DNA of 64,000 nucleotides from IMG/VR virus record IMGVR_UViG_3300028048_003164, positions 1 to 64,000 of that record; one strand, written 5' to 3'. Of this stretch, positions 22,810-38,766 are shown piece by piece. The notes beneath the pieces were generated by a model, which worked only from the letters and a program-made list of their open reading frames with translations, was not told the DNA's origin and did not search any database. A program made the position numbers and the translations under genes. Numbering within the stretch: the stretch's first letter is position 1; each line of letters begins with the position of its first letter. The stretch comes from a virus. Taxonomy: Duplodnaviria; Caudoviricetes.

Positions 22810-22884
22810 AAAATATTTGGTTACTAAATACAAATTTATTAATTTTGCAACGTGCGGATAGCACAAAATAAAAAAACGAAGGAT

Positions 22885-23572: not shown

Positions 23573-23657
23573 GGAGAGTTGGCTGAGTGGTCGAAAGCAG
23601 CACATTGCTAACGTGTCAGTCAGAAATGGCTCGGAGGTTCGAATCCTTCACTCTCCG
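23573..23657 (+). tRNA. tRNA-Ser(GCT)
   Basis: GGAGAGT/ACTCTCC acceptor, TTGCTAA loop, long variable arm, GGTTCGAATCC. Confidence 0.9.
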
Positions 23658-23749
23658 CAAAAAGGCATAACGGAAGCCGCACGGATTAATCCGCCGTACT
23701 TCGCACACAGGGCAGCGGCACATGGGATAGCGGAGGATGCCTTTCATAT

Positions 23750-23821
23750 CGCGGAATGGAGCAGTAGTAGCTCGCCTGGCTCATAACCAGGAGGTCGATG
23801 GTGCGAACCCATCTTCCGCAA
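23750..23821 (+). tRNA. tRNA-Met(CAT), initiator-like
   Basis: C1:A72 mismatch, CTCATAA loop, atypical T-loop TGCGAAC. Confidence 0.85.
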
Positions 23822-23828
23822 CGAAAAT

Positions 23829-23902
23829 GGTTGTGTAGCTCAGAAGGTCAGAGCAATTGGCTGTTAACCAATAGGCCGCTGGTTCGAATCCAGCCACATC
23901 CG
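23829..23902 (+). tRNA. tRNA-Asn(GTT)
   Basis: ATTGG-CTGTTAA-CCAAT anticodon arm, GGTTCGAATCC. Confidence 0.9.
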
Positions 23903-23946
23903 CAGAAATTTAATATATGAGTTTTGAATGTTAATCTGTTACGATT

Positions 23947-24120: not shown

Positions 24121-24195
24121 TATGGATAGGGGAGGAAGATTTTTTTCCCCTTTTCCTTTTTTTATTCATGTATTAAATTAAAAAAAAACAGTTTT

Positions 24196-24600
24196 ATGTC
24201 AGAGGTTACAATAGCCCGCGAAAGTGGTGTTAATACTCTTAATGCGGTCAGTTTGTCTGCAAGGCGGCAGGCAAATCCGTTCCGCAGTATCACCACCCGC
24301 CCCATCAGTGCGGCCTACAGGGCTGAGTTGGAGGAGCAGGGTGTGAATATGCGTATCTATGAGTCTTTGCGCCGTGACGAGCGCGACAGGCGGATTGACG
24401 ATGCTTACGAGACGGAGGTGCGCAACCTTCGCAATGCGCTGCGTGAGAAATATCCGCTTGGTAACTATGCGAACACTGCCTTCACCACCGACCGTGACCT
24501 GCTTGCGCAGGCAAAGGCAGAGAGAGCAGCGTATAACAGGGAATTGAATCAAGGCGTGAGGCGGCTCAAGCGTCTCGCTGCTGCGGCAAAGAAAAAGTAA
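24196..24600 (+). CDS. ARE-leader protein 1
   Basis: N-terminus MSEVTIARESGVNTLN. Confidence 0.8.
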   Translation: MSEVTIARESGVNTLNAVSLSARRQANPFRSITTRPISAAYRAELEEQGVNMRIYESLRRDERDRRIDDAYETEVRNLRNALREKYPLGNYANTAFTTDRDLLAQAKAERAAYNRELNQGVRRLKRLAAAAKKK

Positions 24601-24631
24601 GTAACAACAAATAACAAAAAAGGATAAAAAA

Positions 24632-25207
24632 ATGGCAAGTGAAGTATTTTCGGCACGGGAAAGCGGAGTAAGCAGCCTTAACGGAGAGAAGGTCGGAGGA
24701 CGTACTGTTCCTCGGCTGTACTCAACGGAGAGGAACGAGAACTACCCACAATCATTGAAGTTAGGTATCTCTACACGCGAGTCGACAGCCGAGGTAGACA
24801 AGACCATTCTCGAGTCGACGATGGGTCAGCTTTCCGACGGAATATGGGAGAACTCCCGTCAGATGGAGAAGTACTGGAGCGGTGCAACGTTCTCGCAGGA
24901 CGAAAAGGGAAACGTCGAGCTCCGTTACAAGAGGGTTAGCTTCGAGCGGATTCCCAAATGGAGAAGGGGTCATATCGAATATGACACGAAGATAAAGTAT
25001 TCGGGTTATGATGGTATGTCGGAACGGAATGCTCGTGATTTTGTTGCAGACAAGATAAAGGCTGTGTTCAATACCGAGAAGAAGGATAGACCGTCAATCG
25101 GTAAGTGGAGCGAGGACAACCGAACCGTAATGGATTACTTGGGGCACGGTGCGAAGCCCGTGACCGTATCGGATGCATACAATTTGTACAAGAGATTGAA
25201 ATCGTAA
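24632..25207 (+). CDS. ARE-leader protein 2
   Basis: MASEVFSARESGVSSLN; body contains GQLSDGIWENS. Confidence 0.8.
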   Translation: MASEVFSARESGVSSLNGEKVGGRTVPRLYSTERNENYPQSLKLGISTRESTAEVDKTILESTMGQLSDGIWENSRQMEKYWSGATFSQDEKGNVELRYKRVSFERIPKWRRGHIEYDTKIKYSGYDGMSERNARDFVADKIKAVFNTEKKDRPSIGKWSEDNRTVMDYLGHGAKPVTVSDAYNLYKRLKS

Positions 25208-25232
25208 AAGAAAGGAAATGAAAGAGTAAAAG

Positions 25233-25745
25233 ATGAGTGAAGCGCAAGTCATACATAACTCTACAAAAAATGCCTCAAATGTTGTTCGTTCAGCAGCACG
25301 GAGGGTGTTTGGAACGGCAGAGCAGAAGATCCGTAAGGTCTTTAATGATTTGCGCCGCAAAGGGCACTCTTCCGTCCAACCGTTTTCTGTAGGACATGTA
25401 GAAAGGAGAATGCGAGAATTTGCTGCTGCAAACAGCATAGAGTTGGCAGAAGGAGATATGTATATGAGCGTGAAAGGAATAACTCATGCCAGAAGAGGTA
25501 CAAAAATAAGGAGTGGAAAGGCAGTGTCAGAGAAAGCAATTGCAAGGTTTCCCAAAAACCGAAATACGATGGATTTGTATTACGACGGTAAGGTGTTTGT
25601 TTACACAAATTACAAGAATAAATTTATCGTTCATCCGAATTATGAATTGAAAATGGAGGGTGGAAAGGTAAGAAAGGTAAACTTTGTAACAGCGAGCAAG
25701 GCTGGTCGTGATGAGTTCAATTTGCATAAGTATAGGAAAATATAA
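25233..25745 (+). CDS. Putative PBECR/BECR-fold RNase-like protein
   Basis: DMYMSVKGITHARR helix with His, then beta-rich C-terminus ending FVTA; family call by eye. Confidence 0.5.
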   Translation: MSEAQVIHNSTKNASNVVRSAARRVFGTAEQKIRKVFNDLRRKGHSSVQPFSVGHVERRMREFAAANSIELAEGDMYMSVKGITHARRGTKIRSGKAVSEKAIARFPKNRNTMDLYYDGKVFVYTNYKNKFIVHPNYELKMEGGKVRKVNFVTASKAGRDEFNLHKYRKI

Positions 25746-25840
25746 AAAGATGGAAACGAGCGACAGATTTGAACTGCTACACGTCCCTTTCGGGAGCCGC
25801 CTTTACCATACATCGCGGGTCTACTCGTTTACATCTTTTG
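25744..25840 (-). ncRNA. Candidate tRNA-like small RNA
   Basis: TATATTTG at 25846-25853 (-); 16-bp closing stem, GAAA tetraloop hairpin, T-arm-like GCAG-TTCAAAT-CTGT, U-run. Confidence 0.6.
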
Positions 25841-25917
25841 CAATGCAAATATAATAACAATAAACGAAAAAGACAAATAAAAGGCAATAAAATTTAGAAT
25901 ATTTAGCAAAAAAAAGT

Positions 25918-26634
25918 ATGTTAGACAAAGCAATAGCAATAACGGATGAGATAGCGAAGCGCACGGACGAGGTGATACTATTCCACTCGGCATCGGGCAA
26001 GGACAGCATCGCATTGCTCGACATCTGTGCCCCAAGGTTCAAGCGTGTGGTGTGCGTGTTTATGTACGTGGTAAAGAACATGGAGCACATCAACCGCTAC
26101 ATTAACTACGCCCGTAAGAAGTACCCCAACTGTGAGTTCGTGCAGATTCCGCACTTTGCCGTGTTCTCGTACATCAAGTACGGCTACATGGGGCATTGGA
26201 AAGACCAGAAGACGAAGTTGCAGACGATGGCTACACTTACGGACATGGTTCGCAAGAAGATGGGCATACAGTGGGCACTCTACGGATTCAAGCAGAGCGA
26301 TTCCCTCAACCGCCGGTGTATGCTTCGTACGTATGAAATGGAGGCTATCTGCGAGAAATCGAAGAAAGCCTATCCTCTCTCACACTATAAGAACAAGGAT
26401 ATACTGGAGTATATCGACCGTAGGGGGCTGATTCGTCCCGAGTGCTACGGAAAGGGACAGTCGAGTGGTCAGAATATCACCGATCTCGACTATCTGCTTT
26501 ATATCCGTGATAAATTCCCGCAGGACTTGCACAAGCTCTATGAAGAGTTCCCTGATTGTGAGCGTCTTTTGTTTGAGTATGATTACGAAGAGAAAAAGAA
26601 AAAGGAAGAATCGGAGAAGAATGAATCCGATTAG
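25918..26634 (+). CDS. PAPS-reductase-like PP-loop protein
   Basis: HSASGKDSIALL, GFKQSDSLNRR, YPLSHY. Confidence 0.85.
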   Translation: MLDKAIAITDEIAKRTDEVILFHSASGKDSIALLDICAPRFKRVVCVFMYVVKNMEHINRYINYARKKYPNCEFVQIPHFAVFSYIKYGYMGHWKDQKTKLQTMATLTDMVRKKMGIQWALYGFKQSDSLNRRCMLRTYEMEAICEKSKKAYPLSHYKNKDILEYIDRRGLIRPECYGKGQSSGQNITDLDYLLYIRDKFPQDLHKLYEEFPDCERLLFEYDYEEKKKKEESEKNESD

Positions 26635-26715
26635 TTCCTTTGCTATCTTTAGCATGTAAATTTTTGACTATCAACGAAATTTGATTATATTTGCAACAAA
26701 AAGAAAGGATAAGAT

Positions 26716-26991
26716 ATGGCAGCAGAAACAACTATAGCAAGAGAGAGCCGGGTAAATCCAGTCAATGGAATAAGCAGTAGAACAAGGGCGTACATGCCTA
26801 TTTTTGGTCAGGCACGTAATTGGGACGAGACGAGCAGGCTTGTTCAAGCCGTAGGAGATAGAGGACAGGCCCTAAAGCAGCGATTGCGTCGTACTTACCC
26901 TATAGATGGTGACAACGATGAGTACAATCGTAGAATTGCAAGAATAAACAGGGCTACAAATAGCATGAACCGTCGACTGCTTGGCTATTAA
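26716..26991 (+). CDS. ARE-leader protein 3 (Arg-rich)
   Basis: MAAETTIARESRVNPVN; TATATTTG at 26686-26693. Confidence 0.8.
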   Translation: MAAETTIARESRVNPVNGISSRTRAYMPIFGQARNWDETSRLVQAVGDRGQALKQRLRRTYPIDGDNDEYNRRIARINRATNSMNRRLLGY

Positions 26992-27019
26992 ATTGCAACG
27001 GAACATAAAAATATAAGTT

Positions 27020-27739
27020 ATGGCAAAGAAGAAGGTTAAGGCACTTGAAACGTCAGAGACGAGGGTGGTGAAGCGTTCAATCATTGCTTTCCACTCCAAA
27101 AACCCGAAGCGTCATACAGAGGATCGTATCAAGCAGCAGGCGAAGAACCTCAAGAAGGTAGGCTATCTCGGTGGCATCGTATGGAACGAGACCACGGGCA
27201 ATATCATAGACGGACACCGCCGTATCAAGGCAATGGACTTGTACTACGGCTATGACGGCACGCCCGAGACGGACTATGACGTGAAGGTGGAGGTCGTTCA
27301 CATGGACGAGGCGGCGGAAAAGCAGCAGCTTGCGTACATGGCGGCAGGCGACACCAAGGCAGACCTTGACCTTCTTGCAGAGTTTGCCAATGACATTGAC
27401 CTCGGGGAAATCGGTCTTGACCAAAGCGAGATAGACGACATACTGAACATCGCCAACGGCTCCAACGAGGAAACGGTGGATATTCTAGAAGACCTTGTCA
27501 CCCCGAAGAAGAAAGTTCCCGAAAAGGGCACTGCCGAGTACGAGGAGGCAAAGGCAAGGGTGAAGGCGGGAAAGGCTAAGACTAAGGAGATGGAGAAGGA
27601 CTACCGCAACGACGAGGCGGCACACGTCACTCTCTCGTTCTCCAACTATGATAACTTCGTGGCGTTCTGCGACCTCATGGGTGTTGCGCCCGATGTGAAG
27701 TTTGTTAAAGGAGAGGAACTATTACAAATGTTTGAGTAG
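27020..27739 (+). CDS. ParB/Srx-like protein
   Basis: NPK...GYLGGIVWNETTGNIIDGHRRI. Confidence 0.85.
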   Translation: MAKKKVKALETSETRVVKRSIIAFHSKNPKRHTEDRIKQQAKNLKKVGYLGGIVWNETTGNIIDGHRRIKAMDLYYGYDGTPETDYDVKVEVVHMDEAAEKQQLAYMAAGDTKADLDLLAEFANDIDLGEIGLDQSEIDDILNIANGSNEETVDILEDLVTPKKKVPEKGTAEYEEAKARVKAGKAKTKEMEKDYRNDEAAHVTLSFSNYDNFVAFCDLMGVAPDVKFVKGEELLQMFE

Positions 27740-27740
27740 T

Positions 27741-28043
27741 ATGGCAAGAGAAGTAATCGCAGCGAGGGAAGGTTCTGTGTCGGGGATAAATAACTCCTTG
27801 AAGAGCGGAAGGTCTTTGAGACGGCAGTATCAGGGTATTATAGCGGACGTGACGGACGGGTATTCTTACGAAGGTTATGACGTAAACAATAGAAAGACCG
27901 TAGTTCGTTCCACACCGAACAGTTCTACAGGTTTCTATAGGGTGGAGACTAAGGGCTATGGTGTAGCGGAATTTTTCGACCCCGACTCTACGGCGCAATT
28001 CTTACAAGGAATCGGGTATAAAAAATACAAAATGAAGGGTTAA
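27741..28043 (+). CDS. ARE-leader protein 4
   Basis: MAREVIAAREGSVSGIN (start re-called at 27741). Confidence 0.8.
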   Translation: MAREVIAAREGSVSGINNSLKSGRSLRRQYQGIIADVTDGYSYEGYDVNNRKTVVRSTPNSSTGFYRVETKGYGVAEFFDPDSTAQFLQGIGYKKYKMKG

Positions 28044-28056
28044 AAAAAGAAAGGAT

Positions 28057-28395
28057 ATGGCAGCAGAAATAACTATAGCACGTGAAAGTAGGGCGAATCC
28101 AATAAACGGTAGTGGACGGGCGCAAAGACGTATTCCAATACCGCGCGATGTGAACAGCGTCCCAAACAAGGAGTGGCGTTCAATTACACGGACGTTGGAG
28201 AAATCCAATGCTGACTCTCGTGATGCTGCACGTCACCTCGAGGAAGAGTCAATGACAGACCGCGAGCTCGGGAACTTTTATGCGGTGGCAAATCATTTCT
28301 CCACGAGGTACAGCATTAGCGCATCGGCACGGGAAAATAGCAGAAAGTGGGCAAACCTCGCTCTTAATGAAATGAGATATAGAAGAAGGAGGTAA
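28057..28395 (+). CDS. ARE-leader protein 5
   Basis: MAAEITIARESRANPIN. Confidence 0.8.
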   Translation: MAAEITIARESRANPINGSGRAQRRIPIPRDVNSVPNKEWRSITRTLEKSNADSRDAARHLEEESMTDRELGNFYAVANHFSTRYSISASARENSRKWANLALNEMRYRRRR

Positions 28396-28399
28396 CATT

Positions 28400-28606
28400 A
28401 TGGCAACAGAAGTAACATCGGCACGGGAGCGTAAAACGAATCCGTTAAATGCGCTAAAAAGGAGTGGTGCTAAACAATATTACGGAAATGGTGCTAAGTT
28501 GTATTACTATAGGCGTATTACTTCTCGTATAACCGAAGTTTACGATTCTAATGGGAAATACTTAGGTGATGTGAAGAATTTCGAAGAGCTTAAAGAAACG
28601 CTATAA
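28400..28606 (+). CDS. ARE-leader protein 6
   Basis: MATEVTSARERKTNPLN. Confidence 0.75.
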   Translation: MATEVTSARERKTNPLNALKRSGAKQYYGNGAKLYYYRRITSRITEVYDSNGKYLGDVKNFEELKETL

Positions 28607-28608
28607 GA

Positions 28609-29268
28609 ATGGCAACTGAAGTAGTGTCTGCACGTGAATTTTCCACAACACGTAACACGTCCAATGCGGTACGTGGTGAGGCAAGGACAGTAGGAGGGGT
28701 AACGGAGAACGGCTACTCCGCAGCCTTGAAGCGTTCCATCCTCTCCTACGAGCAAAAGCAGCGTCAGGAGTGGAACGAGGCGATGGCCTACTATGACAGC
28801 GAAGGCAATCAGTTGAACCGCCGACAAGGCAAGAAGCACGATGCAGTCTCAGTCTACGACAAGGACATTCCGAAGGACGCAAACGGCAACCGAAGGGACG
28901 ATATCATCTTCACGCACAATCACCCAGACGCCATCGGCAAGACGGGCTACGGAAGCATAGGAAACTCTTTCACTCCTGACGATATGATTATTGCCGTGAA
29001 GTACAACGCCAAGGAAATGCGGGCTGTCACACCGAGCTACACCTTCTCCTTCAAGCGTCCGAAGGGTGGATGGGGGGTGAAGCAGGCGGCTGTGCGACGG
29101 GCATTCAAGAATGCGCAAGAACAGGTCTTATCGGAAGGGCAGTACTACTATGAGAGAGCGCGGATGACCGACGTGGCAAACGAGAGATACATGGCTACCT
29201 TTTGGCATAAGGTGAACAAACTTGTTGCAAAGGAACTTGGTTGGAACTATTCAAAGAAGAAAGGGTAA
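28609..29268 (+). CDS. ARE-leader protein 7 with JAB/MPN-like domain
   Basis: MATEVVSAREFS; E...THNHP...SFTPDD metal-binding pattern. Confidence 0.75.
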   Translation: MATEVVSAREFSTTRNTSNAVRGEARTVGGVTENGYSAALKRSILSYEQKQRQEWNEAMAYYDSEGNQLNRRQGKKHDAVSVYDKDIPKDANGNRRDDIIFTHNHPDAIGKTGYGSIGNSFTPDDMIIAVKYNAKEMRAVTPSYTFSFKRPKGGWGVKQAAVRRAFKNAQEQVLSEGQYYYERARMTDVANERYMATFWHKVNKLVAKELGWNYSKKKG

Positions 29269-29272
29269 GAAT

Positions 29273-29575
29273 ATGGCAGGAGAAACAACAATAGCAAGAG
29301 AACGGGGTGTTAGCTCATTGATTGCACGAAATGCCGTGACAAATTCTACACAGCGTTTGCAAGGGTGGAACAATACATATGCACCGAAAAACAAAAAGGT
29401 AAAAGTGCTTGACTGGCTCCGAGATAATGATTTTCATATTGGGGAGACAGAAGAGGACTTGATAGGAGGTCAGACTTTTGGTGAATACAGATTTGATAGT
29501 GCTCATGATGCACTTGATACGTTTATTCGTGATGCGATTTACGATGGAGCAAATAGTTTAAAACGGAAAAGATAA
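29273..29575 (+). CDS. ARE-leader protein 8
   Basis: MAGETTIARERGVSSL (start re-called at 29273). Confidence 0.8.
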   Translation: MAGETTIARERGVSSLIARNAVTNSTQRLQGWNNTYAPKNKKVKVLDWLRDNDFHIGETEEDLIGGQTFGEYRFDSAHDALDTFIRDAIYDGANSLKRKR

Positions 29576-29579
29576 GAAT

Positions 29580-29801
29580 ATGGCAAAGGAAGTTTATATC
29601 AGTAGCAGAACAAGAAGTTTTGCGAATCGTGAGGAAGCAAGGCGTAATGGGTTAAGTACAATGGAGCAGGCTGTAAGGGCCCGTGCTTACTCGCTACAGC
29701 GGAGGTACGGAAATATATCGGGCAATCAGCCTTACGTCCCTGCCAATGAGCAGAGGAACAATACAAGGATAAGGCGAGCCGTAGACAGAATGCTCGGTTA
29801 A
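29580..29801 (+). CDS. Arg-rich protein with degenerate leader
   Basis: MAKEVYISSRT; C-terminus resembles that of 26716..26991. Confidence 0.65.
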   Translation: MAKEVYISSRTRSFANREEARRNGLSTMEQAVRARAYSLQRRYGNISGNQPYVPANEQRNNTRIRRAVDRMLG

Positions 29802-29821
29802 AAGAGAAAGGAGGTAACATT

Positions 29822-30424
29822 ATGGCAAGTGAAGTCTATAAATCACGTGAGAGTTCCGTCAATCCTATAAATGCAGAGGGTAGGGCGGTAAGACTGAAAT
29901 CCGACGGTCTGCCCGAAGGTACGCACTTTCACAAGATGCGTGTAGACGGTTCTTTCCAAGGTATGATAGACTTCGCTGACCGAAAGATTGTTCTTGTGAA
30001 CATTAACGGTGTGGATATTCCGTTCTATCTCTCTACGGGGCAAGGACGCAAATACAGTGTGGAAAGCGGCAAGTGGTATCCGTTCTTTGGCTTAGACCCC
30101 GACGGGTGGTTCAACAAAGGCTCGGAGGGTGATATCAACGACTACTACGGAAGTGTTAATCTGCGCAACGTAGCGCAGGCACTTGATAAGAAGTGGGGTG
30201 ATATTCGCAGCACGCCAAAAGGGAAGAAAGTGGCTTATCGTTTCAAGGATGATCCCGAGCAGTATGAGTCTATCCGTTCGCAAGTGAACAGAGACATGGA
30301 AAAGCCCGTATATCGAGTTGACCACAGGGGGCAGAAGCTCGATTATGCCGAGGCGAGAGCGAATCGGAACGATAAGAATTATTATGAAAGAATAAAAAGA
30401 ATAATTAAAAAGATAGGAGGCTAA
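29822..30424 (+). CDS. ARE-leader protein 9 (SRE variant)
   Basis: MASEVYKSRESSVNPIN; body PFYLSTG...GKWYPFFG...WFNK. Confidence 0.8.
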   Translation: MASEVYKSRESSVNPINAEGRAVRLKSDGLPEGTHFHKMRVDGSFQGMIDFADRKIVLVNINGVDIPFYLSTGQGRKYSVESGKWYPFFGLDPDGWFNKGSEGDINDYYGSVNLRNVAQALDKKWGDIRSTPKGKKVAYRFKDDPEQYESIRSQVNRDMEKPVYRVDHRGQKLDYAEARANRNDKNYYERIKRIIKKIGG

Positions 30425-30425
30425 C

Positions 30426-30863
30426 ATGGCAGCAGAAACTACAGTTGCACGGGAAGGTCGTGTTAATCCAGTGAATTCAGTAGGTGTGGCAAGTCGCACA
30501 AAAGAAAGGGCGGAAAGGGTTATAAGCGATTTTCGCTCGAAGTATCGGACATCGTTCGCTACCATGAGCGGCATTCCACAAGCGAAGTCGAACTTTGTCT
30601 ATAGTTTGACAGAGAAAAAGAGAAGGGAGCAATTCCCGTTCTTGGATAATACAGGCAACGAGGATAAAGAGAGAGCTTTCGACTATGTGGCAGGAGGTGC
30701 TGTCAAGGGCGGAGCGAAGGAAGTGGCAAAAGCCCTTAATGCCTCTGGATTAGGAGACAGATGGAAGGCTGTAAGGGAAGAGAAGGATTTGATGGAACTT
30801 CGCAGTACAGACCCGTGGGGAAACGAGCATAGAATGATTATAAAACCAAGAAAAAATAAGTGA
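30426..30863 (+). CDS. ARE-leader protein 10
   Basis: MAAETTVAREGRVNPVN. Confidence 0.8.
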   Translation: MAAETTVAREGRVNPVNSVGVASRTKERAERVISDFRSKYRTSFATMSGIPQAKSNFVYSLTEKKRREQFPFLDNTGNEDKERAFDYVAGGAVKGGAKEVAKALNASGLGDRWKAVREEKDLMELRSTDPWGNEHRMIIKPRKNK

Positions 30864-30864
30864 T

Positions 30865-31062
30865 ATGAGTTACGACAAGCAGATCAACACCCGTCTCGCC
30901 CCATTCGGGCTGACGGTGAAAGACCTCACGGCAGACGAGTTGAAACGGGCACGTGAGGAACAGAAAGAGCGGAATAAAGGGTTTCTGCTCACAGATGGTG
31001 TACTGACAAGTCGGGAAATTCTATCAAGGGCATTAAAGAAAGGGGTTAAACATGGCAGGTGA
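30865..31062 (+). CDS. Small hypothetical protein without leader
   Basis: Coupled ORF. Confidence 0.6.
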   Translation: MSYDKQINTRLAPFGLTVKDLTADELKRAREEQKERNKGFLLTDGVLTSREILSRALKKGVKHGR

Positions 31063-31369
31063 AGTGATGAAGGCAAGAGAAGCCCGTGTTATGGGACTTC
31101 GATCAAGGAATGCTATTGGCGGTAGAACAGATAGGGCGCACGGACGGGCGACTTGGCCTGCACTGAACGGAAGAGATAAAACGCAGAAGTTTGAAGGCGG
31201 GTATGATTCGTACCTCACCCATCTACAACGTTCTGGTGGCTTTTCTAACGTCATCAATACTGACTACGACAAAGCCCTTTTGCGCCACGAAAAGGAAGGT
31301 ACGCTCACACCAAAAGAGCGTGATGCATTGATTACTTTGAAGTATAGAAAGAAACATATGGGCTTTTGA
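31052..31369 (+). CDS. ARE-leader protein 11
   Basis: MAGEVMKAREARVMGL. Confidence 0.75.
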   Translation: MAGEVMKAREARVMGLRSRNAIGGRTDRAHGRATWPALNGRDKTQKFEGGYDSYLTHLQRSGGFSNVINTDYDKALLRHEKEGTLTPKERDALITLKYRKKHMGF

Positions 31370-31445: not shown

Positions 31446-31540
31446 AGACGGATTGAACCGATACAAAAATACAAAAATATTTGGTAACTAAATACATTTT
31501 TCCTAATTTTGCAGCATAATAAAGGATAACATAAGAGTAT

Positions 31541-34500
31541 ATGGAGACAAAATTGCTGCCGATAGGACAGGTGTTCCCAAATATAGGGCAGGTGAAGGGG
31601 TTGCCTAAAAACCCACGTTTCATTCGTGACGAAAAATACAGGAAACTTGTACAGAGTATTAAAGACGACCCGGAGATGCTGGAACTTCGGGAACTCATCG
31701 TGTATGACACCGGCGATCCTTCCCTCGGATATGTGGTGGCTGGCGGTAACATGCGTTACCGTGCCATGAAGGAACTCGGTTTTAAGGAGGTGCCTTGCAA
31801 GGTCTTGCATACGGGGTTTCCGATAGACAAGCTGCGTCGTATCGTGCTGAAGGACAACTCCTCTTTCGGTGAGACGGACTTTCAGTTGCTCATTGACGAA
31901 TGGTCAATGGACGAGATAGAACTCGCGGCTATTGATATTCCCGAAATCGGAGATGCCGTGGAGGACAATACCGAGGAAGCCCCTACACCGCAGGAGGAAA
32001 GCACCGTAGAGGAGGATGATGACTTTGAGCAGGATGATGTGCTTGAAGATGACATTGTCAAAGAGGGCGACCTTTGGAAACTCGGAAGGCATATGCTGCT
32101 ATGTGGCGACTCTACGAAGCAGGAATGCGTAAGCAGGCTATTCCCCAATGGGGAGCAGGCAGACCTTTGGCTTACCGATCCGCCTTATAATGTAGCCTAC
32201 GGGTATGAGGAAAGTGGAAAGCAGCGCGCTGACGGTCTTGTTGTCCTTAACGACAAGATGAGCAACGATAATTTTGAGCTTTTCCTGACCGATGCCTTTA
32301 CCGAGGCAAAGGCGAACCTTAAGGCTGGCGGCACATACTACATTTTCCATTCCGACTCCTACTCTTTCTACTTTAGGAAGGCTCTTATCAATATCGGTGA
32401 CATGGACTTGCGGCAGAACCTTATCTGGAACAAGAACAGCCTTGTCCTTGGAAGGCAGGACTATCACTGGAAACATGAGCCATGTCAGCCAGCAGGTACG
32501 CTTGTACAGACGATAGAAGGTATCAAGCCAATAGAGACCCTAACAAATAGAGACAGGGTTATTTCTTATGATTCGCTTAGTGGTCAGGTCGTCGGATATA
32601 GAAACGGGGGTTATGCTATAGAAACGGCAAGCAGACACTACAATGGGCTGTTGTATTCCATTTCTGTAGGAGAACATACCACAAAAGCGACAGACAACCA
32701 TGATTTCAGCATACGTTTCAATGGCAATTGCAAGAAAGCGTATTGCACTTATCTTATGCGTCGTGGTGATTGGTGGCGCGTTGGGCATACAAGAGCTTAC
32801 GATGCACGTCAGTTTGGGTTAAAAAGCCGACTTTCACAAGAGAAGGCGGAGGAAGCTTGGCTTATTGAAATGTACGACAATAGGCTTGATGCCCAAGTAG
32901 GTGAGCAAATCTTGGCGGTTAAATATGGTATACCTTATACCCATTGGGAGGTTGAGAGATGGATGACTGTCACGGAAAATGTACGGAATGAAAAGCAGAT
33001 AGCGGATATTTATGATGCGTTGGACTTGGAATTGTTAAGAGAAAATGCGTATCGTTTACTGCATGACTTTGGACGTTCGGAGCGTTTCCCGCTAATAACC
33101 AAACTGACTGTTGGACAGCGTTTCAGCACAAGGGTGACGGCTAAAATCAACGCTTGTAACCTTATCCCTGAACTGATGCAGGTGCCTATACCTACTGGCA
33201 ACGGGAAGGATAACCCAAATTTTACTTGGGAGGTTATAGAAAAGGTTGATTATAAGCCATTTGAAGGCATGGTATATTCCCTTGCCGTGGAGAAACATCA
33301 TCATTATATCGCAGACGGAATAATTACGCACAATTGCTTGTACGGTTGGAAGGACGGGGCAGCACACAACTGGTACTCCGACCGTAAACAATCGACCGTG
33401 ATAGATTGGGACAGGCCGACGAAATCGGTACTTCACCCTTGTCTTGACCCAACAACGCTCGTTATGACTATAGCGGGGTACAAGCCTATAGGCGAGGTTC
33501 AGAAGGGAGAGAAGGTTCTTGCAGGAGACGGTCGTTTCCATGACGTAGAATTTGTTTCCCGACATCCATACAACGAGCCGATATATAATATAAGGGCTGA
33601 AGGCTCAAATATCTATGACCGCGCAACTCATAACCATCCCTACCTCATTGCTCGCCGCAAAAAAGACGGGACATTTGATGTCGGCTTTATAAATGCTGAC
33701 AAACTGAAAAATGGTGACTATCTCATGACACCGCAAGTGGCTCATGGCTCGGAATCGCCCGTTACCGAGCTTGATGCATGGTGCTATGGTTTATGGCTTG
33801 CACAGGGAAGCATTCAGAAAGCAGGACATGGAGAAAACGAGTACCCTGTATTCTCTATCGATTCAAGAAAGAACGAATTAGAGGAAAAACTTTTCCTATG
33901 GGGTGGAGAAAAAGCCAAGACATATCCAAATGGTAGTGGAAATGGCATAAAAGTTATGGTCTTTGACAACGACAAGGCAAAGGATTGTGTAAAACTTTGC
34001 GGAAAGCATGCGGAGCACAAGACTGTATCCGAAGAGGTGTTCACTTGGAGTGAGGGATTACGTCGAGCTTTCTTTGAAGGGTATATGGCAGGTGACGGAT
34101 GTGTTATAAGCACCCGAGGATATCGCCATTCAAAAAGTGTCTCCATCGCCCTTGCATCACAAATCCGCTACATTGCGGAATCGTTAGGCTACCGCACGTC
34201 TTTCTATAAACGAGATCCGAAGGAAGGGGCTGGTATTGGTGATAGAAAATTCAAAACGATGCGCATATGCTATAGTACCGATTACAGGAAAGCAGAGGGA
34301 AATAAAATATTAGAGCCTTTTGAATATGAAGGTGTGAAGTATATACTGCGTCGTGTTGTCGATATAAAGACAGAGCCTTACGATGCTGATGTTGTGAACC
34401 TCTCCGTTGAGGGTAACCATACATTCCAAACGGTGAATGGTTGTACCCACAACACGATGAAACCCGTCGGCCTTTTCGGTTATCTTATGAAGAACTCTTC

Positions 34501-34747
34501 CAAGAAGGGCGATGTCGTCTATGACGGGTTCGGCGGAAGCGGAACGACGCTTATTGCCGCCGAGCAGCTTGGACGCAGCGCACGCGTTTGTGAGCTTTCA
34601 CCCCATTACGTGAAGGTTATAATTTTCCGCTACATTAAGCTGCGCGGCAATTATGCCGATGTATTCAGAATCAATCCAGACGGCACGCAGACGAATATCA
34701 TGGAAATCTTTACGAAAGAGGAACTTGACAATTTGTGTAATACATAA
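31541..34747 (+). CDS. ParB-N plus N4/N6 DNA methyltransferase with two inteins
   Basis: KNPR...GGNMRY; GDLWKLGRHMLLCGDST; TDPPYN; HP/TMKP; DGFGGSGTT. Confidence 0.92.
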   Translation: METKLLPIGQVFPNIGQVKGLPKNPRFIRDEKYRKLVQSIKDDPEMLELRELIVYDTGDPSLGYVVAGGNMRYRAMKELGFKEVPCKVLHTGFPIDKLRRIVLKDNSSFGETDFQLLIDEWSMDEIELAAIDIPEIGDAVEDNTEEAPTPQEESTVEEDDDFEQDDVLEDDIVKEGDLWKLGRHMLLCGDSTKQECVSRLFPNGEQADLWLTDPPYNVAYGYEESGKQRADGLVVLNDKMSNDNFELFLTDAFTEAKANLKAGGTYYIFHSDSYSFYFRKALINIGDMDLRQNLIWNKNSLVLGRQDYHWKHEPCQPAGTLVQTIEGIKPIETLTNRDRVISYDSLSGQVVGYRNGGYAIETASRHYNGLLYSISVGEHTTKATDNHDFSIRFNGNCKKAYCTYLMRRGDWWRVGHTRAYDARQFGLKSRLSQEKAEEAWLIEMYDNRLDAQVGEQILAVKYGIPYTHWEVERWMTVTENVRNEKQIADIYDALDLELLRENAYRLLHDFGRSERFPLITKLTVGQRFSTRVTAKINACNLIPELMQVPIPTGNGKDNPNFTWEVIEKVDYKPFEGMVYSLAVEKHHHYIADGIITHNCLYGWKDGAAHNWYSDRKQSTVIDWDRPTKSVLHPCLDPTTLVMTIAGYKPIGEVQKGEKVLAGDGRFHDVEFVSRHPYNEPIYNIRAEGSNIYDRATHNHPYLIARRKKDGTFDVGFINADKLKNGDYLMTPQVAHGSESPVTELDAWCYGLWLAQGSIQKAGHGENEYPVFSIDSRKNELEEKLFLWGGEKAKTYPNGSGNGIKVMVFDNDKAKDCVKLCGKHAEHKTVSEEVFTWSEGLRRAFFEGYMAGDGCVISTRGYRHSKSVSIALASQIRYIAESLGYRTSFYKRDPKEGAGIGDRKFKTMRICYSTDYRKAEGNKILEPFEYEGVKYILRRVVDIKTEPYDADVVNLSVEGNHTFQTVNGCTHNTMKPVGLFGYLMKNSSKKGDVVYDGFGGSGTTLIAAEQLGRSARVCELSPHYVKVIIFRYIKLRGNYADVFRINPDGTQTNIMEIFTKEELDNLCNT
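32483..33334 (+). mobile_element. Intein 1 (284 aa), non-LAGLIDADG core
   Basis: HEP/CQPAGT ... TDNH ... ITHN/CLYGWK. Confidence 0.9.
33440..34453 (+). mobile_element. Intein 2 (338 aa), LAGLIDADG type
   Basis: LHP/CLDPTT ... THNHP ... YGLWLAQGS, FEGYMAGDG ... THN/TMKP. Confidence 0.9.
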
Positions 34748-35996: not shown

Positions 35997-36388
35997 AAAA
36001 GGGGAAAATATACGAGTTTGACCCTATTCTCTATCCTCGTCTGTTGTGGATAGTCAAAGGTTCGGGGGATTTCGTCAGGGAACACTTTCGCAAGAAGGGA
36101 GGTGACGAACTGACGGAAGACGACGTGGATATGCGCTATGTCGATTCGTGGGTATGCAAGTGCGAGCGGAAATCCGACAACAGGCTCGGTATCGTTTTCT
36201 TTTTTGACACAGGGTTAGAGGCTAAACAGCTTGTTCACGAATGCTATCACGCCCTTACGGCATTTGTCAGCGAGATTAACGCCGACCTCCCAGACTATGA
36301 CAGTGACGGGATGGAGGAGTTTGCGGCATACTTGATAGAGTGGATTTTCGATTGCTGTTGGAAGGTAAAGCAAGGTAAGGTGAAATGA
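35993..36388 (+). CDS. HExxH zincin-like protein
   Basis: HECYH...EEFAAYL. Confidence 0.6.
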   Translation: MKKGKIYEFDPILYPRLLWIVKGSGDFVREHFRKKGGDELTEDDVDMRYVDSWVCKCERKSDNRLGIVFFFDTGLEAKQLVHECYHALTAFVSEINADLPDYDSDGMEEFAAYLIEWIFDCCWKVKQGKVK

Positions 36389-38766
36389 CAGACACGGACA
36401 TTTTGAGGGCTTGGACGCTGAAGAGTTCCCTTAACTTCACAAGGTACTTCTTCAAGCAGAACAACGACATGAAGTTCATCATAGGCAGGCACCACAAGCT
36501 TATCTGTGATGCCCTTGATGATGTCCTTAACGGAAAATGCAACAAACTTATTATTAATTTGTCGCCGAGATATGGAAAAACGGAACTTGCAGTAAAGAAC
36601 TTCATTGCTATGGGGTTAGCCGTCAATCCTTCTGCCAAATTCATCCACCTCTCTTATTCTGCCAACCTTGCACAAGACAACTCTATTGCCGTAAAAAATA
36701 TAGTTCAAAACGAAGAATATCAACGGCTCTATCCTACCCGTATCACCTACGGAAAGAATATGAAATCTCAGTGGGAAACCGACCAAGGAGGTGGCTTGTA
36801 CGCCACATCTACGCTCGGTCAGATTACTGGTTTCGGTGCAGGTCTTGTCGAAAGGGAAGGTGAACCGTATCGTTTTGGTGGCGCAATCATTATCGATGAC
36901 CCTATCAAGCCGGAGGATGCCCTTTCCGATGTTGTCCGTGAGCGTGTGAACCGACGTTTTGAAACAACAATCAGAAACCGCGTCAATTCCCGTAACACAC
37001 CCATTATCATTATCATGCAGCGTTTGCATGAGCATGACCTCTGCGGCTATTTGCAGGAAATAGAACCCGACGAGTGGCGGGTGATATCACTGCCAGTTAT
37101 ACAGATAAACGAGAACGGAGAGCGTGAAGCACTGTGGCCATACAAGCATACGTTGGAGGAACTTGATAAAATAAATGCAGCGAACTCCTTTGTTTTTGAG
37201 ACGCAATATCAGCAGAACCCAACGCCGATGGAAGGTCTGATGTACGAACACCCGTTCAAGACATATTCAAAACTTCCGCCCGTAAAGCTTGGAACGATGT
37301 GTAACTGCACGGACTCTGCGGACACAGGTGCCGACTATCTCTGCTCAATCACCTATCTATCAATGAAGGATGGTTACTATGTTACAGATGTAATATTCAC
37401 GAAGAAAAGCATGGAACATACCGAGCCGTGGATGGCGCAGATGCTGGCTAAATGGGATGTTCGATACTGCGTCATTGAATCCAACAATGGTGGCAGGGCA
37501 TTTGCCAGGAACGTGGAGAGACTATCCCGTGAGTATGGCAATGGAAAGACTACGTTCATAACATTCACGCAAACGAAAAACAAACAGGTTCGCATCTTCA
37601 CAAGAAGCCAAGAAGTGAACAATCTGCTTATCTTCCCCGAGGATTGGGAGCGCAGGTGGCCAGAGTTTGCCCATATGATGAAATCGTACAGAAGAGAAGG
37701 ACATAATGCGCATGATGATGCTTGTTTTACGGCAGGAACTCCCGTGGCAACTATATGGGGAAATAAGCCTATTGAAAAGTTAAAGGTAGGCGATTATGTT
37801 TTAACCCCATTCGGAGTAAAGAGAGTCCTTGCATGTGGAAAGACGGGACATAAGCCTACGGTTTCGCGTTTTGGTTTGCAAGTGACTGAAAACCATAGAT
37901 TTTTTAGCTTAAATAGCTTTAAGCCAGTGATGGAATGTGAAGAAAATTCGTTATCTTTGCTTGGAATAAAAGAGCAATTGTTATGGAGATTCAGGAAACT
38001 ATTACTTTCAACGGAGTCGAATACCGTCTTGTGGGGTCGGGAAGGTATTATCTCAGCCAGTCAAAGACTAACGAGGGACGAAAAGGCGCAAAAAGCCTTC
38101 ATGTCGCAATTTGGGAGTTTTATAACCAACAAGAAGTTCCTAAAGGCTATTGCATTCATCATAAAGACCATAATACTTTTAATAACGACATCAGTAACTT
38201 GGAGTGTTTACCGATTAAGCAACACTTGTCGGAGCATAGCAAGAAGAATTGGCAATACGCTGAATATCGGAAAAAAATGGCAGATACCCAACAGAAACGT
38301 TGTGAGGCCGCATCAGAGTGGCACAGAAGCAAAGAAGGAAGGGAATGGCATAGAAAACACGCACATTGCGAGCGAAAACTGCGAGTCAGCATTTGTAGGT
38401 TCTGCGGAAAAGGTTTCCTGTCAAACAAAATCGACGCATGGTTTTGCAGCGAAAAATGCGGTGAGAACTACCGAAGAAACTATGAACTCAAATATACGGC
38501 TGTCTGTCAAGAGTGCGGCAAGGTATTTCAGTACGGAAAAGGATCAGCTGGACAACCAGATAGAAAGTTCTGTAGCCGTTCTTGTCACATCGCGAACAAC
38601 AACAGAAAACGCAAGAGACGTGTATAATATCACGGTAGAGGATGTCGGTTGTTATTATGCCAATGGAATTCTTGTGTCGAATTGTGATTGTGCTACTATG
38701 GTCATTGAAAGGGGAAGCCTTATCAGCGGCGCAAGCGATGAACAGATACTTTCGGATTTCTTATAG
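36385..38766 (+). CDS. terL: Terminase large subunit with intein
   Basis: PRYGKT, IIIDDPIK, MQRLH..DL, YQQNP, ESNNGG, HDDA/CD. Confidence 0.93.
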   Translation: MTDTDILRAWTLKSSLNFTRYFFKQNNDMKFIIGRHHKLICDALDDVLNGKCNKLIINLSPRYGKTELAVKNFIAMGLAVNPSAKFIHLSYSANLAQDNSIAVKNIVQNEEYQRLYPTRITYGKNMKSQWETDQGGGLYATSTLGQITGFGAGLVEREGEPYRFGGAIIIDDPIKPEDALSDVVRERVNRRFETTIRNRVNSRNTPIIIIMQRLHEHDLCGYLQEIEPDEWRVISLPVIQINENGEREALWPYKHTLEELDKINAANSFVFETQYQQNPTPMEGLMYEHPFKTYSKLPPVKLGTMCNCTDSADTGADYLCSITYLSMKDGYYVTDVIFTKKSMEHTEPWMAQMLAKWDVRYCVIESNNGGRAFARNVERLSREYGNGKTTFITFTQTKNKQVRIFTRSQEVNNLLIFPEDWERRWPEFAHMMKSYRREGHNAHDDACFTAGTPVATIWGNKPIEKLKVGDYVLTPFGVKRVLACGKTGHKPTVSRFGLQVTENHRFFSLNSFKPVMECEENSLSLLGIKEQLLWRFRKLLLSTESNTVLWGREGIISASQRLTRDEKAQKAFMSQFGSFITNKKFLKAIAFIIKTIILLITTSVTWSVYRLSNTCRSIARRIGNTLNIGKKWQIPNRNVVRPHQSGTEAKKEGNGIENTHIASENCESAFVGSAEKVSCQTKSTHGFAAKNAVRTTEETMNSNIRLSVKSAARYFSTEKDQLDNQIESSVAVLVTSRTTTENARDVYNITVEDVGCYYANGILVSNCDCATMVIERGSLISGASDEQILSDFL
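37952..37959 (+). promoter_or_regulatory. -7 promoter element inside intein coding sequence
   Basis: ttcgtTATCTTTGc ending 24 nt before the ATG at 37983. Confidence 0.65.
37983..38627 (+). CDS. HNH endonuclease nested out of frame inside the terL intein
   Basis: LHVAIWE...IHHKDHNTFNNDISNLECL plus two C..C/FCS..C Zn fingers. Confidence 0.88.
   Translation: MEIQETITFNGVEYRLVGSGRYYLSQSKTNEGRKGAKSLHVAIWEFYNQQEVPKGYCIHHKDHNTFNNDISNLECLPIKQHLSEHSKKNWQYAEYRKKMADTQQKRCEAASEWHRSKEGREWHRKHAHCERKLRVSICRFCGKGFLSNKIDAWFCSEKCGENYRRNYELKYTAVCQECGKVFQYGKGSAGQPDRKFCSRSCHIANNNRKRKRRV

Follow-up and report, generated by a model that had tools for sequence, protein, structure and literature searches.

A shared N-terminal peptide on unrelated small proteins of a temperate Bacteroidales phage as a candidate capsid-loading tag

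In phage T4, a leader directs the packaging of small, diverse proteins into the scaffolding core, and the injected proteins block defence enzymes (available parts of PMC12373910 and PMC3012670). The T4 internal proteins (Ip) are embedded in the packaged DNA, and one of them, Ip1, has an asymmetric basic face (PMC3012670, in its available part). MuF is a portal-bound head protein, hypothesised to act as a capsid-targeting domain that carries polymorphic toxins (PMC5576092 and PMC11699363, likewise in part), and polyvalent proteins combine sets of effector-like domains whose delivery together with the DNA has been proposed, with ParB-like and JAB (RadC-type) domains in their repertoire (Iyer et al. 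2017, PMC5512222, in part). The stretch analysed here (the window) covers positions 1 to 64,000 of virus record IMGVR_UViG_3300028048_003164, a single contig of 119,607 bp that is classed as a provirus and estimated to be 75% complete; the phage is temperate, large (~120 kb) and of gut Bacteroidales. Between positions 24196 and 31369 it carries an array of sixteen co-oriented (+) genes, eleven of which begin with a canonical leader of ~17 residues (M-A-x-E-[VT]-x-x-[AS]-R-E, usually followed by x-x-V-N-P-[ILV]-N; the ARE leader) and one of which (29580) begins with a degenerate form, while four are without the motif. Comparative analysis of these sequences suggests that the ARE peptide is, on balance, probably a T4-Ip-like capsid-loading tag on small, basic, cysteine-free cargo proteins.

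The array resembles the T4 system of a capsid-targeting sequence (CTS) on Ip1-3 and Alt, and the polymorphic ip loci of T-even phages, in that a short N-terminal leader is all that the small and diverse proteins, which in T4 are non-essential, have in common, in that the genes are clustered and vary between close relatives, and in the basic character of the proteins. The conserved Glu of the ARE leader is at about residue 10, which we take to be its position in the T4 CTS as well. In contrast to T4, the head genes here specify an SPP1-type portal, a lambda-E-type capsid and a separate 283-aa scaffold-like protein, the head is not of the gp23-family type, and there is no gp21-type Peptidase_S77 match. 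Other differences from T4 are that the motif is A/S-R-E plus V-N-P-x-N over ~17 residues, that the array phage is temperate, and that its ~12 genes are interleaved with PAPS-reductase-like and ParB-like genes. This comparison is between genes; its sole, indirect link to a virion is a homologous domain in gp038 of Cellulophaga phage phi4:1, a protein annotated from tandem mass spectrometry (MS/MS).

The leader was first noticed in a first-pass annotation of the window, and all twelve N-termini quoted there are present at the start codons it assigned. When all six frames of the 119,607-bp genome were scanned with the expression M-x(1-3)-E-x(2-4)-[AS]-R-[ET], 12 matches were returned, all on the + strand from 24196 to 31052; 100 mononucleotide shuffles yielded 1 match on average and never more than 6. 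With a degenerate DNA pattern of 30 nt, there were 10 matches in the forward direction, 0 in reverse and 0 when a reversed control pattern was substituted, and the pattern matched 9 and 8 times in two related records. In one of these (G002), seven of the eight matches are inside its array and the eighth is between a ParB-methyltransferase gene and a ParB-like gene, directly 5′ of the terminase genes. Among the other predicted proteins of the genome, no leader-like motif was found except ELKRAREE inside a 65-aa protein. A strict 51-nt leader pattern was found only in a close relative among viral contigs and in seven stretches among metagenome contigs, so the tag as spelled here is limited to one phage group in those collections. 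Literature searches, with supplementary files outside their reach, returned nothing that describes this leader, or leader arrays in phages of Bacteroidales.

Synonymous codon variation within the leader, already reported in the first pass, holds across 29 leader genes of three phages: the invariant Arg is encoded by AGA (8), AGG (7), CGT (6), CGG (6) or CGC (2), and both Glu codons are used. The use of Arg codons from both families together with both Glu codons indicates selection on the peptide. The leader and the basic linker that follows it form disordered extensions (pLDDT < 50 at residues 1-25 and 1-16 in two models). Three other functions were considered for the leader and rejected: an RNA-level operator, for which the Arg codons are too variable; a signal peptide or lipoprotein signal, as the leaders show no hydrophobic stretch; and the leader of a ribosomally synthesised and post-translationally modified peptide (RiPP), as the bodies are 68-219 aa long with folded domains.

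Beyond the leader the proteins are unrelated, as first proposed: no pair of window bodies (residue 19 to the end) was matched by BLASTP at E <= 0.01, and the lengths of 68-219 aa given earlier are correct. When 53 leader proteins from the window, from two related phages (L001 and L023) and from seven metagenome stretches were clustered by BLASTP, they fell into 27 clusters, with the qualification that these sources are not all independent (L099 is apparently the same phage as L023). Pfam matched none of ten array proteins, and PHROGs gave two weak matches for array proteins and none for those at 28400, 29273, 29580 and 30865.

The main comparison between phages concerns the body of leader gene 7 (28609..29268 (+), 219 aa), and its assignment as JAB-like is upheld. 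The JAB/JAMM motif (E57, H103-x-H105, S122-x-x-D125) is present, and the top 16 rows of a VIA structure search with its model are JAB/MPN proteins. In all 30 aligned homologues E57, H103, H105 and D125 are invariant, and S122 is at least 90% conserved; the spacing from H-x-H to S-x-x-D is longer than what we take to be the canonical JAMM spacing. The model has a pLDDT of 84.9, with residues 1-25 (leader and linker) disordered. The best VIA row is PfJAMM1 (Z 7.1, rmsd 3.9, 116 aligned), and Cap3 (6.7), RadC (6.4) and a bacterial Ubl-deubiquitinase (5.7) are among the others; the JAB/MPN rows are modest (Z 7.1-5.0) and include the catalytically inactive partners Rpn8 and KIAA0157. Foldseek matches to the model are weak (best RadC, E 0.03), and Pfam gave no match.

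Orthologues and homologues of this JAB protein occur with different vehicles. In 39 of 42 orthologues (58-94% identity) ARE is kept while the next 15 residues drift, and among distant homologues 12 of 21 start with M[GA][RK]x[SAN]G. Homologues of ~40% identity belong to phages of ~50 kb, with relatives in Bacteroidales assemblies (Prevotella, Bacteroides, Paraprevotella). The JAB proteins of the ~50-kb phages start with MGRNSGGV, MAKTSGGVR or similar, and in 26 of 49 viral loci, many of which are near-identical phages from one sample, and in 5 of 23 genome loci, one or two adjacent unrelated genes start in the same way; a second MGRNS-type protein was not found in fused form among the fetched loci. 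Starts of the MGRNSGGV, MAKTSGGVR or MAKVNGGTR kind were seen at L025:10013-11415, L030:9491-11337, L077:6341-7773 and ~30 further loci. A third leader type is found in a 165,288-bp viral contig (L060:215-15264), where an array of 16 small basic genes starts with MATRKKSxxDIxxQxxRI; ParB-like, PAPS-reductase-like and JAB-like genes are embedded in it, the terminase and portal genes are directly downstream, as in the window phage, and many of its bodies carry, by eye, the motif R-Y-x-x-N-I.

In a fourth arrangement the JAB domain is covalently attached to a head protein. In L059, L064 and L082 it forms the C-terminus of a Phage_Mu_F protein, and in L064 and L082 the preceding gene scores as a Portal_Mu portal; L080, which was outside the Phage_Mu_F domain scan, resembles L064. 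A Bacteroides acidifaciens assembly, L084, encodes a 901-aa portal-MuF-JAB fusion that has the JAB domain at its end. The array thus resembles MuF toxins such as Bxa of a Bacteroides stercoris prophage and Apk2, which likewise join a constant N-terminal trafficking part to a variable C-terminal effector, and its own JAB body is a Phage_Mu_F C-terminus in L059, L064, L082 and L084; further likenesses are a small protein predicted to occupy the JAB active site, of a family that also follows the fusions of L059 and L082, and related loci in which ADP-ribosyltransferase (ART) and Gln_amidase domains occur in post-portal proteins. The array differs from MuF toxins in that its constant part is 17 residues rather than a domain of ~110 or more, in that it consists of many separate genes rather than one fusion, and in that it is beside the terminase gene and ~50 kb from the portal gene. 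Its genome has no MuF domain: PF04233 gave no match at E <= 10, and when three post-portal proteins from related loci were used as tblastn queries, the lowest E was 0.4. Nor does a MuF or protease gene follow the portal gene in two ARE-type relatives. Given the absence of a MuF homologue from the genome, the tag could replace MuF. The array is a member of neither the T4 CTS/Ip system nor the MuF toxins, but from this comparison it appears to work like both.

The small protein in question is encoded in the window by 30865..31062 (+), has 65 residues and no leader, and is the predicted partner of the JAB protein. Its family comprises 46 open reading frames (ORFs; 23 distinct sequences) in the fetched loci, and where gene order was read it is encoded just 3′ of the JAB gene whatever the vehicle of the latter, including the MuF fusions of L059 and L082; in the window it is 1.6 kb downstream of the JAB gene. 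Complex prediction for the JAB and 65-aa proteins gave an ipSAE of 0.89 (0.85, 0.89 and 0.90 in separate runs) and 0.00 for the best of three controls. In calibration, 58 of 80 solved complexes reached the mark used, as did 2 of 110 mismatched pairs; these counts apply here only roughly, because our own alignments were used. At least 93% of contacts are common to the runs, and the pLDDT of the partner is 85 or more. Confident contacts join E57, H103, H105 and S122-D125 of the JAB protein to residues 40-46 of the partner, including its invariant D44, and the models therefore predict that the 65-aa protein plugs the JAB active site in the manner of an immunity protein or inhibitor. MuF immunity proteins have been reported on the active site of their toxin in AlphaFold 3 models (PMC11699363, available part). 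A tagged effector and an untagged blocker are what a loading tag predicts, and this is the only candidate immunity gene for the 12 leader genes.

Two further bodies lead to portal-linked or virion proteins. In L077, the gene directly downstream of the portal gene encodes a 744-aa protein with a Gln_amidase (glutamine-deamidase) toxin domain, and residues 600-740 of this protein are matched by the body of a 165-aa leader protein of the relative L001 (L001:8253). The central domain (~residues 48-130) of the protein of leader gene 9 (29822..30424 (+), 200 aa, MASEVYKSRESSVNPIN) recurs in 18 proteins of 352-1875 aa, one of them with an N-terminal Portal_Mu domain. Against a viral structure library, the model of this protein matched giant phage proteins, including Cellulophaga 'structural proteins', with E of 1e-4 to 2.5e-12. 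The domain is found in gp038 (1957 aa) of Cellulophaga phage phi4:1, in agreement with PHROG profile positions 1706-1769 of 1957, and the MS/MS basis of gp038 is taken from its record note ('annotation based on experimental MS/MS proteomics analysis'). The gp038 match is a domain-level link and not proof for the 29822 protein. With the full-length protein, tblastn against phage records found nothing, and against solved folds the model had no clear match (best VIA Z 4.4, PH-like).

ART/ADPrib_exo_Tox, LPD3 or Gln_amidase domains were also observed at L025:15269-17737, L030:15473-17017 and L077:11508-13742, downstream of or directly after the portal gene; such domains after the portal in ~50-kb phages are the pattern of Bxa-type MuF polymorphic toxins in Bacteroidales prophages. 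The array recalls polyvalent proteins in the LPD3 domain of a post-portal protein of related loci and in the recurrence of the 29822 domain in proteins of up to 1875 aa. It differs in having one body per gene of 68-219 aa with its own tag, as opposed to two to fifteen domains per polypeptide, and no N-terminal leader is described for polyvalent proteins in the available part of PMC5512222.

The leader proteins are also alike in composition. The impression that they are mostly basic is borne out, with a pI of at least 9 in 11 of 12 compared with 41 of 138 other ORFs of 60-230 aa. Cysteine is absent from all twelve leader proteins of the window (0 in 1538 residues) and from 31 leader proteins of three phages (0 in 3960 residues), against a background of 0.72% in the structural block and 1.9-2.4% in non-structural blocks (replication, terminase, minus-strand), which is approximate since the crude gene calls include some spurious ORFs. 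The other leader types are similarly poor in cysteine, with 6 in 8675 residues for the MGRNSGGV type and 1 in 2060 for MATRKKS, and the other ORFs of MGRNSGGV-type loci have 1.45%. A lack of cysteine would, as in secreted and translocated proteins, be expected to prevent cross-linking in oxic surroundings and to ease unfolding.

The bodies are exchanged as cassettes, whose breakpoints often use the leader as their 5′ junction. The relative L001, whose ParB-like protein is 94% identical, has 11 leader genes, several with different bodies, and is missing two genes of the window. Rightward homology to L001 ends at 24644, 26767, 28428, 29278, 30466 and 31063, in each case in or at most 14 nt from a leader-coding stretch, and restarts 2-27 nt 5′ of the next start codon. 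Similar events appear in contigs of four runs from four studies: 24632-25207 and 29273-29575 are lost, the body after 26767 is replaced, as is the sequence after 31063, and the gene order is changed. Several of the joints fall inside or close to leaders, or where one gene meets the next (26767, 29267, 31063, and 26741 joined to 30426). The leader of 28400 is identical to that of the JAB gene of L001.

The first-pass annotation read these genes as a portable, peptide-level address tag on a swappable set of virion proteins, cut after its Glu. The tag, its portability and the polymorphism of the bodies all stood up, and the virion destination is indirectly supported. Cleavage is not. A capsid-loading tag is favoured because homologues of the bodies are elsewhere fused to MuF or portal proteins or contained in an MS/MS-annotated virion protein, because the leader is lineage-specific on a shared body and the proteins that carry it are cysteine-free and basic, and because the predicted inhibitor is leaderless and cassettes are exchanged at the leader.

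Several findings weigh against a loading tag. No leader-like motif was found in the scaffold, capsid or portal proteins, and no head component was identified as a partner of the leader, no leader-head pair having been examined. Neither Peptidase_S77 (PF03420), S78 (PF04586), S49 (PF01343) nor ClpP (PF00574) had a match at E <= 10 in the 119.6 kb of the record (~75% complete), so that a T4-style 'load and clip' cycle would be without its enzyme here; the head module looks protease-less, and the proposal that a T4- or phiKZ-type prohead protease cuts the tag off behind its Glu is unsupported. The phage collection contains no cultured relative, the best match of the capsid protein to a named phage being 32% identity. 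GCA encodes the Ala before the Arg in 21 of 27 leaders compared with 35% in gene calls, an over-use that implies some remaining constraint at the nucleotide level. The JAB homologue of L060 is without the MATRKKS leader of its array. In L023, the orthologue of leader gene 11 (L023:8604-8920) reads MAKEATIAR and then TAA in place of the Glu codon, with a Met four codons later that reopens the frame; either the leader is decaying here or the form is naturally leaderless, so the body may work, or decay, without the tag. The tblastn link of the 29822 protein is weak (96-aa core; E 6e-3 for phi4:1 and 5e-3 for phi17:2), and its fold match to gp038 spans only ~110 columns. Finally, breakpoints in or near the leader fit a role in recombination equally well.

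That neither a head partner nor a protease was found would suit an intracellular role for the leader, as a short linear motif on proteins that are not packaged: a shared degron, or a peptide on which a host or phage factor docks, so as to time or localise the proteins during infection. Like degrons and docking motifs, the leader is a disordered extension of the N-terminus, and the L023 gene may be expressed leaderless. We nevertheless consider this explanation unlikely, because it accounts neither for the fusion of homologous bodies to MuF, portal and virion proteins, nor for total avoidance of cysteine when other intracellular phage proteins have 1.9-2.4%, nor for a predicted inhibitor that is tagless.

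The breakpoints raise a different possibility, that the leader is mainly a recombination handle, a conserved 5′ end that lets bodies be swapped, inserted and deleted (compare modular shuffling of the T4 type), with a peptide of little function. Homology to L001 that stops at leaders and restarts just before the next start codon, the loss, replacement and reordering of cassettes in the four runs and the identity of the 28400 leader with the JAB leader of L001, which leader-to-leader exchange would produce, are all in keeping with it. As the main role of the leader it is quite unlikely, because leaders within the genome share too little DNA to recombine efficiently by homology (five Arg codons, with differing neighbour codons), because the peptide is kept in nearly all JAB orthologues down to 58% identity, and because the cysteine-free, basic bias of unrelated leader types is left unexplained. 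A handle is, moreover, compatible with a functional tag and not exclusive of it.

That a JAB-like peptidase gene is in or beside arrays of all three leader types, with its catalytic motif intact in 30 of 30 homologues, could mean that the leader is a propeptide, removed for activation and not for packaging by the JAB/JAMM-like protein of the array or by a host enzyme. A cleavage site is suggested by the conserved Glu at position 10, and the MGRNSGG-type leader often ends in small residues, as do the substrates of JAMM enzymes. However, JAMM enzymes are known to cut after the Gly-Gly of ubiquitin-like tails and are not known to cut after A-R-E, the same JAB domain is fused to MuF in phages where no leader-sharing genes were seen, and the JAB homologue of the MATRKKS array is itself tagless, all of which makes a propeptide very unlikely. 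Least probable of all is descent of all the genes from one old paralogous family whose N-terminus is its slowest-evolving remnant, for although the tandem layout, the common basic character, the frequent basic C-terminal tails and the R-Y-x-x-N-I motif in many L060 bodies (by eye) would suit such a family, 53 leader proteins form 27 clusters, and three body families have leaderless homologues in MuF-JAB proteins, portal-linked giants and a post-portal toxin protein, which indicates that the leader was grafted onto bodies of separate origin.

The array begins with leader gene 1 (24196..24600 (+), 134 aa, MSEVTIARESGVNTLN), which has one residue fewer before the Glu, no cysteine, and orthologues in L001 (99% identity) and L023 (82%). 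Leader gene 2 (24632..25207 (+), 191 aa, MASEVFSARESGVSSLN) is skipped in a contig of run X7, where 24611 is joined to 25205, and is replaced in L001; an atlas search with the 191-aa protein gave nothing usable. The next gene (25233..25745 (+), 170 aa) has no ARE, encodes a cysteine-free protein with no Pfam or PHROG match, and may, judging by its sequence, be a decayed or former leader gene. Its protein starts with MSEAQVIHNSTKNASNVVRS, which is similar to the JAB protein's leader-linker (..TRNTSNAVRG). This gene is followed by a leaderless PAPS-reductase-like gene (25918..26634 (+)) with 7 cysteines and a Pfam PAPS_reduct match (E 1.3e-10); such a gene adjoins ParB and terminase genes in 16 smaller phage loci without arrays.

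A promoter-like motif, TTTG-N-TAnnTTTG (26663..26693 (+)), is ahead of the second block of leader genes. Leader gene 3 (26716..26991 (+), 91 aa, MAAETTIARESRVNPVN) has the full consensus; homology to L001 ends at 26767, its last leader codon, and the body is replaced. A leaderless ParB-like gene (27020..27739 (+); phrog_9353, E 1.7e-48; phrog_620, ParB-like) separates it from leader gene 4 (27741..28043 (+), 100 aa, MAREVIAAREGSVSGIN), leader gene 5 (28057..28395 (+), 112 aa, MAAEITIARESRANPIN; orthologues in L001, L023 and L097) and leader gene 6 (28400..28606 (+), 68 aa, MATEVTSARERKTNPLN; absent in L001). After the JAB gene comes leader gene 8 (29273..29575 (+), 100 aa, MAGETTIARERGVSSLI), which encodes the sole acidic protein of the set (pI 6.7) and is missing in L001 and in a contig of run X4, and then the gene with the degenerate leader (29580..29801 (+), 73 aa, MAKEVYISSRTRSF), a form that is kept in L001 and L023. 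Leader gene 10 (30426..30863 (+), 145 aa, MAAETTVAREGRVNPVN), directly after the 29822 gene, has been replaced in L001 from a breakpoint inside its leader (30466), and leader gene 11 (31052..31369 (+), 105 aa, MAGEVMKAREARVMGLR), which overlaps the end of the gene for the 65-aa protein, has a mosaic body.

The window opens with a tyrosine integrase gene (1-1248). Three tRNA genes (23573-23903) and a terminator-like hairpin (24128..24151 (+), a 10-pair stem plus a T run) precede the array, the hairpin directly 5′ of the first leader gene. On the 3′ side are a ParB-methyltransferase gene with intein-type inserts (31541-34747) and the large terminase gene (36385-38766; phrog_30251, E 7e-127), the latter 5 kb 3′ of the array, which agrees with the first-pass placement of the array just upstream of the packaging genes. 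The protein of 31541-34747 has a ParB-like N-terminus joined to an N6/N4 DNA methylase, and its inserts match Intein_splicing, LAGLIDADG_3 and Hint_2; the L001 copy has 730 aa, so at least one insert is missing there. The head module is past the window and encodes the SPP1-type (SPP1 Gp6-like) portal (80298-81737 of the genome, minus strand), a 128-aa protein, the 283-aa scaffold-like protein (85701-86552) and the lambda-E-type major capsid protein (87008-88318), which matches Phage_cap_E and phrog_29; the portal gene is ~50 kb from the array, which adjoins the terminase. This module is like that of Cellulophaga phage Nekkels_1, without an annotated protease between portal and capsid protein.

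The Bacteroidetes-type promoter-like motif TTTG-N17-23-TAnnTTTG has 14 matches in the window against 1.8 expected. Its copies are at 22816-22847, 26663-26693, 31480-31511 and 11 other places, and a longer box, TTTGGTwACTAAATACA, is common to the copies at 22816 and 31480. Two ORFs of 379 and 402 aa, TnpB-like by eye and starting M(I/M)TYKYKLYRT, were seen at 78513-79652 (minus strand) of the genome and at L023:5661-6869; one is two genes after the portal gene and the other is within the leader array of L023.

If the ARE peptide is a loading tag, the tagged proteins would be made late in infection, beside the packaging genes, and the flexible N-terminal peptide would dock on the assembling head, either on the scaffold, by analogy with T4, or on the portal, by analogy with MuF. 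The basic bodies would stay with the incoming DNA, and the cargo would exit through the tail at the next infection, where the absence of cysteine would prevent cross-linking in oxic surroundings and ease unfolding; in the new host the cargo may have anti-defence or host-modifying roles. The JAB cargo would meanwhile be blocked in the producing cell by its leaderless 65-aa partner. The tag would then do the job of the T4 CTS and also, for homologous domains in other Bacteroidales phages, the job of a covalent fusion to MuF or portal.

A more tentative generalisation, to which we give somewhat less than even chances, is that Bacteroidales phages with protease-less heads load cargo by lineage-specific N-terminal 'zip codes' that are interchangeable with MuF or portal fusion, and that cysteine is avoided for survival outside the cell and for threading through the tail. 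With the same reserve, the candidate zip codes would be ARE..VNPxN in the window phage, the MGRNSGGV/MAKTSGGVR type in the ~50-kb phages and MATRKKSxxDIxxQxxRI in the 165-kb phage. The T4 CTS/Ip loci and the MuF toxins are the closest known systems; the switching of the JAB domain between vehicles, the recurrence of two further bodies in portal-linked giant proteins, the absence of cysteine, the predicted plug of the JAB active site and the breakpoints in or near leaders are new here.

Proteins that are coinjected with DNA act before phage genes are expressed and are thus a first line against host defence, but recognising them is difficult except in T4-like and giant phages. A tag that can be read from sequence would list candidate injected effectors and inhibitors in abundant phages of gut and rumen Bacteroidales, for which at least 27 body families have been fetched; among the solved folds nearest to the JAB/JAMM body are deubiquitinase-like enzymes of bacterial defence systems (Cap3 and Bil-type). 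Another use of the tag could be the loading of chosen proteins into particles of such phages. Tag-borne and MuF-borne versions of one effector link the T4 internal proteins with the MuF polymorphic toxins, fields that have been treated apart. If zip codes of this kind are real, the injected effector set of an uncultured phage would be readable from its sequence, and leaderless partners would mark the cargo that is toxic to its producer.

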